IMG/VR virus record: IMGVR_UViG_2778261532_000008
Reading direction: 5' to 3' (one strand)
Origin: a virus
Lineage: Duplodnaviria; Heunggongvirae; Uroviricota; Caudoviricetes
DNA: 44,392 nt
Notes under the pieces: generated by a model
Database searches by the model: none
What the model saw: only the letters and a program-made list of their open reading frames with translations
What the model was told of the DNA's origin: nothing
Shown: in pieces, positions 42,290 to 43,620 of the stretch
Layout: each line of letters starts with the position of its first letter
Numbering within the stretch: the stretch's first letter is position 1
Translations under genes and position numbers: made by a program

Positions 42290-43618
42290 GTGCGCCGTAA
42301 AATCCCGTCCTTCAGGGAGGGGATATAAGGCGTGGTTTTCCACCTAACTGTTTTTGTTTAAAATAGTGGGATGAAGCGACTACAAGCATTTAAATTCCAG
42401 TTAAGACCCGGTGGTCAACAGGAGCGTCAAATGAGGCTCTTTGCCGGAGCTTGTCGTTTCGTTTTCAATCGTGCACTGGCACTTCAGAATGAGAATTATG
42501 AGGCCGGGAATAAATACATCCCTTACACGAAAATGGCTTCCTGGTTGGTTGAGTGGAAAAAAGACACTGAAACCGAATGGCTTAAAGATTCTCCCTCACA
42601 GCCATTGCAGCAGTCACTGAAAGACCTTGAGCGGGCCTACAAAAATTTCTTCCAGAAGCGGGCGGCTTTTCCCCGATTCAAAAAGCGGGGACAGAATGAT
42701 GCATTCCGCTACCCGCAGGGTGTTAAGCTCGACCAGGAAAACAGCCGTATTTTTCTGCCGAAACTTGGCTGGATGCGCTACCGTAACAGCCGGCAGGTCA
42801 CGGGGATTGTGAAAAATGTCACTGTCAGCCAGTCCTGCGGTAAATGGTACATCAGTATTCAGACAGAAAGTGAAGTATCCACTCCGGCTCACCCTTCAGC
42901 ATCAATGGTCGGATTGGATGCTGGCGTGGCCAGGCTCGCCACGCTGTCAGATGGCACAGTCTTTGAGCCTGTAAACAGTTTCCAGAAAAACCAGAAAAAG
43001 CTGGCGAGACTTCAGCGCCAGTTAAGCCGCAAGGTCAGATTCAGCAACAACTGGCAGAAGCAGAAACGCAAAATACAGCAACTGCACTCCCGTATCGCAA
43101 ATATCCGCAGAGACTACCTTCATAAAGTCACAACGATCATCAGCAAAAACCACGCAATGATTGTCATTGAGGATTTGAAGGTTAAACACATGTCAAAGTC
43201 AGCGGCGGGTACGATAAGTCAGCCGGGTCGCAATGTCCGGGCAAAATCAGGTTTAAACCGTTCGATACTGGATCAGGGCTGGTATGAAATGCGCCGCCAG
43301 CTTGAGTATAAGCAGCTCTGGCATGGTGGTCAGGTACTGGCAGTGCCGCCAGCGTACACAAGCCAGCGTTGCGCGTGCTGTGGTCATACCGCGAAAGAAA
43401 ATCGCCTGTCACAAAGTAAATTCAGATGCCAGGTATGTGGATATACAGCGAACGCCGATGTAAACGGCGCTCGTAACATTTTAGCGGCGGGGCACGCCGT
43501 ACTTGCCTGTGGAGGGATGGTGCAGTCAGGCCGTCCGTTGAAGCAGGAACCCACCGAAATGATTCAGGCGACAGCCTGAACGTAGCAGGAATCCACGCCC
43601 GTCAGGGCGTGGAGGGTG

Positions 43619-43620
<2 letters not shown>
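42290..43620 (+). mobile_element. IS200/IS605-family element carrying tnpB only (IS609/IS1341-like); boundaries approximate
   Basis: tnpB ORF with no tnpA; subterminal hairpin CCACGCCC-GTCA-GGGCGTGG 15 nt after the tnpB stop. Confidence 0.5.
42371..43579 (+). CDS. tnpB: TnpB (OrfB) RuvC-like RNA-guided nuclease of IS200/IS605 family
   Basis: 402-aa ORF with split RuvC residues ([21 protein letters not shown]) and zinc finger CACCGH...CQVCG; very similar to E. coli IS609 InsQ as recalled. Confidence 0.9.

Follow-up and report, generated by a model that had tools for sequence, protein, structure and literature searches.

The window analyzed here, a stretch of 44,392 nucleotides taken from an IMG/VR virus record (IMGVR_UViG_2778261532_000008), represents a P1-like (Punavirus) phage-plasmid, and the gene order and sequence around the element described below match P1 (NC_005856). 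By their match to P1, the genes ssb (40776-41264, minus strand), lyz (41392-41991), and lydD (41984-42238) were assigned, together with the open reading frame of the antiholin gene lydE (42088..42300, plus strand), the C-terminus of which is altered by the insertion from ...WWLFKRID* in P1 to ...WWLSGAP* in the window. Just upstream of the insertion point, the sequence shows CCCCGG-AAGCCG-CCGGGG and then a T-run (42252..42277, plus strand), a terminator-like hairpin belonging to the lyz-lydD-lydE operon; it is conserved in P1 and absent from the list produced by the automatic terminator scan. The element is followed by the 3' part of the head-processing gene pro (43619..44265, minus strand), whose upstream part was removed by IS100. 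The original prediction had placed a convergent gene at 43619-44299; its convergent 3' end was recovered, whereas the gene is not whole: it is the 3' remainder of pro, interrupted at 44266 by an IS100 end.

Boundaries of the element and its empty site

The insertion at the ends of lydE and pro is a non-autonomous derivative of IS609 (IS200/IS605 family) that has lost tnpA and kept both ends, tnpB, and the predicted omega-RNA. It comprises 1,336 bp (42287..43622, plus strand) without a target-site duplication, and its boundaries were taken from the empty site of P1, which corrects the previously proposed span of 42290-43620. P1 reads ...GGTGGTTAT|TTAAACGGATTGATTG..., and the window reads ...GGTGGTTAT|CCGGTGCGCC...GGAGGGTGTCAA|TTAAACGGGTTGATTG..., which places the insertion point directly 3' of TTAT (42283..42286, plus strand) and the terminus of the element at TCAA (43619..43622, plus strand). 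At the junction, GGTTAT|TTAAACGG of P1 is represented in the window by GGTTAT, the element, and TTAAACGG, that is, by a motif-specific insertion without duplication as it is characteristic of the IS200/IS605 family. The assignment of TTAT as the transposon-adjacent motif (TAM) and left cleavage site is based on the P1 alignment, the family copies, and PMC6906374, the last of which also gives TCAA as the right cleavage site. The actual motif is, accordingly, TTAT (TTAY in the family) and not the TTGAT-like sequence that had been expected. Empty sites, which were to be sought in relatives, were found in P1, P7, and most P1-like plasmids (430 of the 491 site-matching PLSDB records).

For comparison, 80 related loci were retrieved from contigs representing one genome per species, and 41 Enterobacterales copies were aligned. 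The right end ...GGAGGATGTCAA is common to the complete copies, with the sequences diverging straight after it, and every relative whose left end could be located has TTAT or TTAC as the preceding motif. The element is 90-95% identical to the copy that 5,025 of the 5,426 complete E. coli genomes contain, and the element at the same site was named IS609 in PMC6906374. The classification as a solo tnpB element of the IS609/IS200-IS605 kind was confirmed by IS609 similarity, by the family ends, and by the missing tnpA partner.

The insertion had been described as lying between the lysis gene and the next phage gene; it is not strictly intergenic and falls where lydE and pro overlap at their 3' ends. 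In P1, the minus-strand reading of TTAT includes the TAA with which pro terminates. In the window, TTGA, complementary to the right end, provides T plus TGA in register, and the minus-strand reading of TCA is the TGA stop codon that now terminates pro. The insertion was most likely tolerated because this in-frame TGA replaces TAA and pro is altered in its last residue only, from K to N (...PFK* to ...PFN*).

TnpB, element ends, and the missing transposase

The tnpB gene (42371..43579, plus strand) encodes a protein of 402 aa belonging to the RNA-guided endonuclease family, as deduced from Pfam, NCBIfam, and PDB homology. The domains PF12323 (HTH_OrfB_IS605), PF01385 (OrfB_IS605), and PF07282 (Cas12f1-like_TNB) were all detected above their cut-offs, and the NCBIfam model NF040570 (guided_TnpB) matched with 389.6 bits (cut-off 100). 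In a phmmer search against the PDB, the protein aligned end to end with ISDra2 TnpB (8H1J, 8EXA; E ~5e-52), and this sequence alignment makes the homology to solved TnpB structures unambiguous. The RuvC triad D183/E267/D363 and the zinc finger C334/C337/C353/C356 (CxxC...CxxC) are intact and align with their ISDra2 counterparts, the catalytic residues of which are numbered D191/E278/D361. The predicted full triad and zinc finger are therefore present without substitution, and a nuclease-dead TldR repressor was rejected, the protein being of full length with both sites preserved.

The reading frame of 402 aa is intact in nine of nine tnpA-less copies compared, with dN/dS values between 0.05 and 0.17; relative to a close same-site copy (L130), tnpB carries 11 synonymous and 2 non-synonymous changes. 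These ratios indicate that TnpB is under purifying selection, although this selection may be exerted across the entire IS609 population. A putative sigma-70-like promoter (TTTCCA, 16-nt spacer, TAAAAT; 42337..42364, plus strand) was recognized solely by its resemblance to the consensus, which it matches at 9 of 12 positions, and ends 6 nt ahead of the tnpB ATG.

No TnpA homologue was found when the TnpA of a related full-length copy was compared by tblastn with the entire 44-kb window (best E value 1.5), in agreement with the predicted absence of a tnpA partner, and tnpB occurs in the window only once. The element encodes no Y1 (HUH) TnpA and is for this reason regarded as a non-autonomous derivative. 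Most relatives carry, in the interval separating tnpB from the left end, a divergently oriented gene for a 145-aa Y1 transposase (NF033573); the tnpB ATG lies approximately 496 nt from the left end in tnpA-bearing copies versus 84 nt in the window copy. Only 80-84 nt were found in the copies from the window, RCS47, Citrobacter, and Kluyvera, which identifies them as tnpA-less derivatives.

Both ends carry subterminal hairpins preceded by guides that match the cleavage sites, as in other members of the IS200/IS605 family. At the left end, an imperfect hairpin (CCCGTCC-TTCA-GGGAGGG; 42304..42321, plus strand), presumably the TnpA binding site, is separated from the cleavage site by 17 nt and occupies the same position in family copies. 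The left-end DNA guide AAAA (42299..42302, plus strand) was identified by its covariation with the cleavage site and would pair with TTAT under the IS608 rule, according to which the left-end guide pairs with the cleavage site, as reportedly described by Barabas et al. in 2008. This guide and the flanking motif covary at their fourth base, TTAT/AAAA occurring 14 times and TTAC/AAAG seven times, with four exceptions (21 of 25 sites fit). At the right end, GAAT (43589..43592, plus strand) lies directly 5' of the hairpin, which in turn is located 10 nt from TCAA; by analogy to IS608, GAAT is presumably the right-end guide.

The end layout and the TnpA mechanism of IS608 from Helicobacter pylori provide the reference for this comparison. 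The window element shares with IS608 the insertion 3' of TTAY, the right end TCAA, the subterminal hairpins at approximately 17-19 nt (left) and 10 nt (right) from the respective cleavage sites, and the 4-nt DNA guide 5' of each hairpin covarying with the cleavage site. It differs in that the window copy is devoid of tnpA, that its TAM is TTAT rather than TTAC, and that tnpA is divergent from tnpB in its full-length relatives. Based on the TTAT/AAAA and TCAA/GAAT pairs, the subterminal hairpins, and the IS608-like layout, the ends look competent for a Y1 TnpA supplied in trans.

Predicted omega-RNA and guide

When the last 190 nt of the element were compared among 29 distinct copies using RNAalifold, a consensus of 47 base pairs was obtained, 11 of them with compensatory double changes, and 97.9% of the alignment cells were paired. 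The 11 compensatory pairs compare with 4.8 ± 1.2 after shuffling (0 of 500 shuffles reached the observed value) and with two to seven when the partners were slid; the single-sequence fold of the window RNA yielded z = -4.65. A long-range helix formed by ACAUUU (from position 43476) and GGGUGU, located just ahead of the element end, suggests an omega-RNA scaffold of approximately 147 nt (43476..43622, plus strand), the 5' end of which is set by this first long-range helix. The predicted scaffold overlaps the 3' end of tnpB and reaches the right end, and a flank-derived guide would come next, corresponding to the arrangement of OMEGA systems. No Rfam family was found for the omega-RNA at gathering thresholds. 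Weak matches below threshold were obtained in this region for HgcC, sot0042, and RAGATH-18, which we take to be RNAs overlapping tnpB 3' ends; these matches were treated as a hint, and the omega-RNA call rests on the covariation.

The perfect 8-bp right-end hairpin CCACGCCC-GTCA-GGGCGTGG (43593..43612, plus strand) represents the predicted terminal stem of the omega-RNA and the presumed TnpA binding hairpin. It constitutes helix 9 of the consensus and, because compensatory double changes occur in five of its nine pairs among the 29 copies, it is no chance structure. The hairpin noted in the original prediction is consequently real and covarying and, as had been proposed, part of an omega-RNA-like structure; its distance from the last stop base, however, is 13 nt and not 15 nt.

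The predicted guide, 20 nt in length (16-20), is TTAAACGGGTTGATTGAATT (43623..43642, plus strand), its position being adopted from PMC10055086. It coincides with the last pro codons and would be antisense to the pro mRNA, a position that agrees with the expected overlap between a guide just past the right end and the 3'-terminal part of the convergent gene. The TAM of TnpB was taken to be TTAT, under the assumption that it is identical to the transposase motif. In a search of the window for TTAT plus guide with up to three mismatches allowed, the only match was the occupied site itself, which departs from the target at two TAM positions (TCAA in place of TTAT). The arrangement predicted here, in which the scaffold shares sequence with the tnpB 3' end and the guide that comes after it is derived from the flank, is also known for ISDra2 and the Geobacillus ISGst elements (PMC10055086), from which the window element differs by its TAM, TTAT instead of TTGAT.

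Distribution and possible function of the element

The insertion itself is already known. Venturini et al. (2019, Sci Rep, PMC6906374) reported IS609 between pro and lydE in pJIE250-3 with the cleavage sites TTAT/TCAA, and an IS609-like sequence in pSvP1 as well. As the same-site insertion has been published, the element in the window is well formed yet ordinary; the element of pJIE250-3 was treated as an IS in that study, and the omega-RNA and the guide were outside its discussion. The literature on tnpB in phage-plasmids and on insQ yielded nothing specific. What the window adds is a fully delimited natural example featuring the TAM, both ends, a predicted omega-RNA and guide, the empty site, and apparent excision revertants. 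The TnpB element concerned lacks tnpA, and the phage-plasmid carrying it moves among E. coli, Salmonella, E. fergusonii, and E. albertii; beyond annotation, the example is of little import.

The insertions in pJIE250-3 and in the window are the same and reside at the same site, but the two elements are just 93.9% identical (dS 0.23), whereas their flanks are nearly identical, with 0 of 255 differences in lydD and 7 of 558 in lyz. (The corresponding comparison for pro is inflated by the IS100 junction.) Since the element of pJIE250-3 is 98.9% identical to the chromosomal IS609 adjoining yedK, gene conversion from the chromosomal copy seems to be the simplest account of these sequences. An independent insertion of the pJIE250-3 element at a hot spot is less parsimonious, since both copies carry G at guide position 9 and have the same junction lacking tnpA. 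If gene conversion occurs, the intact reading frame in the window need not reflect selection inside P1. In the copies examined of the widespread chromosomal E. coli IS609 next to yedK, tnpA contains an internal stop, and an active TnpA source in the usual host is therefore uncertain, so that restorative homing may be needed only rarely; tnpA is intact in a copy from Escherichia sp. MOD1-EC7003 (L003) and in the other genera examined.

With regard to prevalence, about 57 of the 491 site-matching PLSDB records are split by an insertion (~12% occupied), and in IMG/VR, 39 empty and nine occupied contigs were counted. Occupied plasmids, AP018809 and pJIE250-3 among them, were found in all four hosts named above, and all isolated P1-like phages of the phage collection were empty at this site. 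Position 9 of the guide (43631) is G in 12 of 12 occupied alleles examined, namely nine from IMG/VR, pJIE250-3, an E. albertii plasmid, and the window. Among the empty sites of IMG/VR, A was found in 38 of 39 and G in one, and exact matches to the G version were present in 2 of 445 PLSDB empty sites. The change is synonymous, affecting an Asn codon of pro (AAC/AAT). The right flanks of the three G-type empty sites are identical or nearest to those of occupied alleles, and, judged by these flanks, the rare G-type sites look like precise TnpA-excision revertants. Occupied alleles are spread over several flanking haplotypes that also occur with empty alleles.

Probably, these observations are best explained by a tnpA-less IS609 whose TnpB and omega-RNA act on re-formed or homologous empty sites. 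As known from the family, TnpB would bind the omega-RNA, whose 3' extension TTAAACGGGTTGATTGAATT would be copied from the pro sequence in the flank, and the complex would cut any DNA carrying TTAT followed by the guide sequence. Possible targets are an empty site re-formed by TnpA excision or an element-free homologue of the same sequence, and recombinational repair from an element-bearing copy may then restore or spread the element. The occupied site would escape cutting because TCAA stands in for TTAT. By analogy, we infer a role in homing or retention, as the original prediction had suggested; the mechanism as such has been described before (PMC10055086, PMC13565253). TnpB-mediated cleavage of the donor joint and transposon retention were reported by Meers et al. 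(PMC10055086), who also noted that most tnpB elements are devoid of tnpA, as is the window copy. In the same study, HpyTnpB of IS608, likewise a member of the IS200/IS605 family, was inactive in plasmid interference assays.

A possible but doubtful account regards the element as an inert passenger, i.e., a single harmless insertion in which TnpB and the omega-RNA are silent or irrelevant and the reading frame is intact owing to young age or gene conversion. Gene conversion is indeed suggested by the difference of 6% between same-site elements with nearly invariant flanks, but the low dN/dS values hold even between close same-site copies, and all catalytic residues as well as the RNA structure have been retained. 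Similarly, the pseudogenized tnpA of the chromosomal E. coli copies examined would fit a passenger, whereas the G-type empty sites point to actual excision. It is also consistent with a passenger that the insertion is near-neutral for the flanking genes and that pro in the window had already been destroyed by IS100, hence a replicon accumulating IS elements.

A further proposal, considered unlikely, is that the element serves as a gene drive or a weapon in competition, in which TnpB and the omega-RNA would cut the lydE/pro site where it is empty in a relative, be it co-resident or superinfecting, and either copy the element in or destroy that relative; the A at guide position 9 of most empty sites would then represent a resistant allele. 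The restriction of occupied alleles to G and their occurrence on several haplotypes shared with empty alleles are in line with this proposal, and discrimination of single mismatches at guide positions 5-12 was described for another TnpB (PMC12781874). However, position 9 is the sole marker in complete linkage with occupancy; it lies 9 bp from the insertion, and such linkage is explained by ordinary recombination, so that the G association requires no nuclease homing; with the fully linked marker so close, the flanking haplotypes did not discriminate homing from plain recombination. Moreover, the mismatch at position 9 would keep the element from homing into the majority of natural empty sites, occupancy among the site-matching P1-like records is as low as stated above, and no outgroup for the ancestral state of position 9 was found, since none of the more distant phages covers the pro 3' end.

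A comparable insertion is known from the P1-like phages RCS47, SJ46, and vB_EcoM-813R1, in which insQ, a tnpA-less IS609 relative (93% identical), is likewise inserted 3' of TTAT and its right end gives the stop codon of the convergent gene ddrA. It differs from the element of this study by its site between ddrB and ddrA and by its right end TCAC, and the corresponding P1 site is empty in the window, with a perfect TTAT and target; this second site likewise speaks for the gene-drive proposal. Spread driven by TnpB in a plasmid population was cited in a 2026 review, which also discussed non-restorative homing into co-infecting phages and plasmids (PMC13565253); so far, such homing has been argued mainly from laboratory plasmid populations. 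In its full form, namely a cassette that would spread among P1-like phage-plasmids as a naturally occurring, RNA-guided drive, cutting the empty lydE/pro sites of co-resident relatives and copying itself in, with A at position 9 (~97% of the empty sites) conferring resistance, the proposal is quite improbable and not required by the data. If it were true, P1-like lineages aimed at different sites (lydE/pro, or ddrA/ddrB in RCS47) could attack each other, and a bias of inheritance between co-resident P1-like plasmids would represent natural non-restorative homing by TnpB in phage.

Finally, it is highly improbable that the G+C-rich hairpin just past the stop codon is merely the tnpB transcription terminator, a notion rejected given that it lacks a T-run (the next bases being AGGGTGTCAATTAAAC), is absent from the terminator scan, is conserved together with the next 10 nt to the exact element end whatever the neighboring genes in complete copies, and belongs, as one of several helices, to a larger structure with covariation, or that the element acts mainly as an antisense or regulatory factor on pro and lydE, for which the predicted antisense orientation of the omega-RNA 3' extension to the last pro codons would speak.

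The replacement stop for pro, the G association at position 9, and the excision-like empty sites are new but minor details. The first of them recurs in other insertions, since the right end also supplies a stop codon at ddrA (RCS47) and at yedK (E. coli chromosome). This stop-preserving geometry, in which TTAY complements RTAA and TCAA complements TTGA, helps to explain the persistence of such elements at convergent gene ends. In 12 of 51 distinct insertion sites, a reading frame that is open over 60 codons or more ends exactly at the right-end TCA, compared to two and zero in the control frames.

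Candidate excision products and possible exchange between IS609 copies

At guide position 9 (window 43631, 9 bp beyond the right end of the element), G was found only in occupied alleles, apart from three rare empty sites, namely L119, L134 (pEA24_3), and L135 (pUTME-12-1). Because the right flanks of these three empty sites were identical or closest to those of occupied alleles, they represent candidate products of natural precise excision. On its left side, pEA24_3 features icd and an antirepressor gene in place of the lysis genes.

The element of the P1-like plasmid pJIE250-3 (L131, 1588-2923), residing at the same P1 site, was 98.9% identical to the chromosomal IS609 copy located next to yedK in E. 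coli (L133), whereas its identity to the window element amounted to 93.9%, despite the nearly identical phage flanks of both. This pattern points to gene conversion between the IS609 copies of plasmid and chromosome. Most complete E. coli genomes possess an IS609 copy at 95-99% or higher identity. In both E. coli genomes examined (L004 and L133), tnpA of the chromosomal IS609 was found to carry the same internal stop (GR*LRR), and tnpB was intact.

The ddrB/ddrA site and insertion at stop codons

In the P1-like phages RCS47, SJ46, and vB_EcoM-813R1, a related tnpA-less IS609 is situated between ddrB and ddrA. The corresponding site of the window (35746-35769, minus strand) is empty, featuring an intact TTAT followed by the flank GCTGCCTCTTTAATG..., which is exactly the would-be guide of the RCS47 element.

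Analysis of the right-end junctions (L002-L082, L133, and the window) revealed that, at 12 of the 51 distinct insertion sites, a convergent gene uses the right-end TCA as its TGA stop codon, the other two frames accounting for 2 and 0 sites, respectively. The complement of TTAY is RTAA and that of TCAA is TTGA; therefore, for insertions at TAA stops, termination stays in register.

Interruption of pro and further records

Sequence comparison showed that the match of the window to P1 and pJIE250-3 breaks off at 44266, and the stretch from there to 44392 matches IS100 (istA), a member of the IS21 family, at its left end with 100% identity; thus, pro is broken by a second insertion sequence, and normal heads are probably not formed by this replicon. 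Alternatively, the contig may just terminate within the repeat.

On the minus strand, 15390-15475 and 15544-15597 gave above-threshold Rfam matches to C4 antisense RNA and to the a1/b1 targets of this RNA, which belong to the P1 immI immunity region. The same tnpB, either complete or in part, was also present at 93-94% nucleotide identity in records of unrelated phages, one of them filamentous: U02303/NC_001954 (If1), MT713136 (Aeromonas phage AP1), and KY653118 (Morganella phage IME1369_01).
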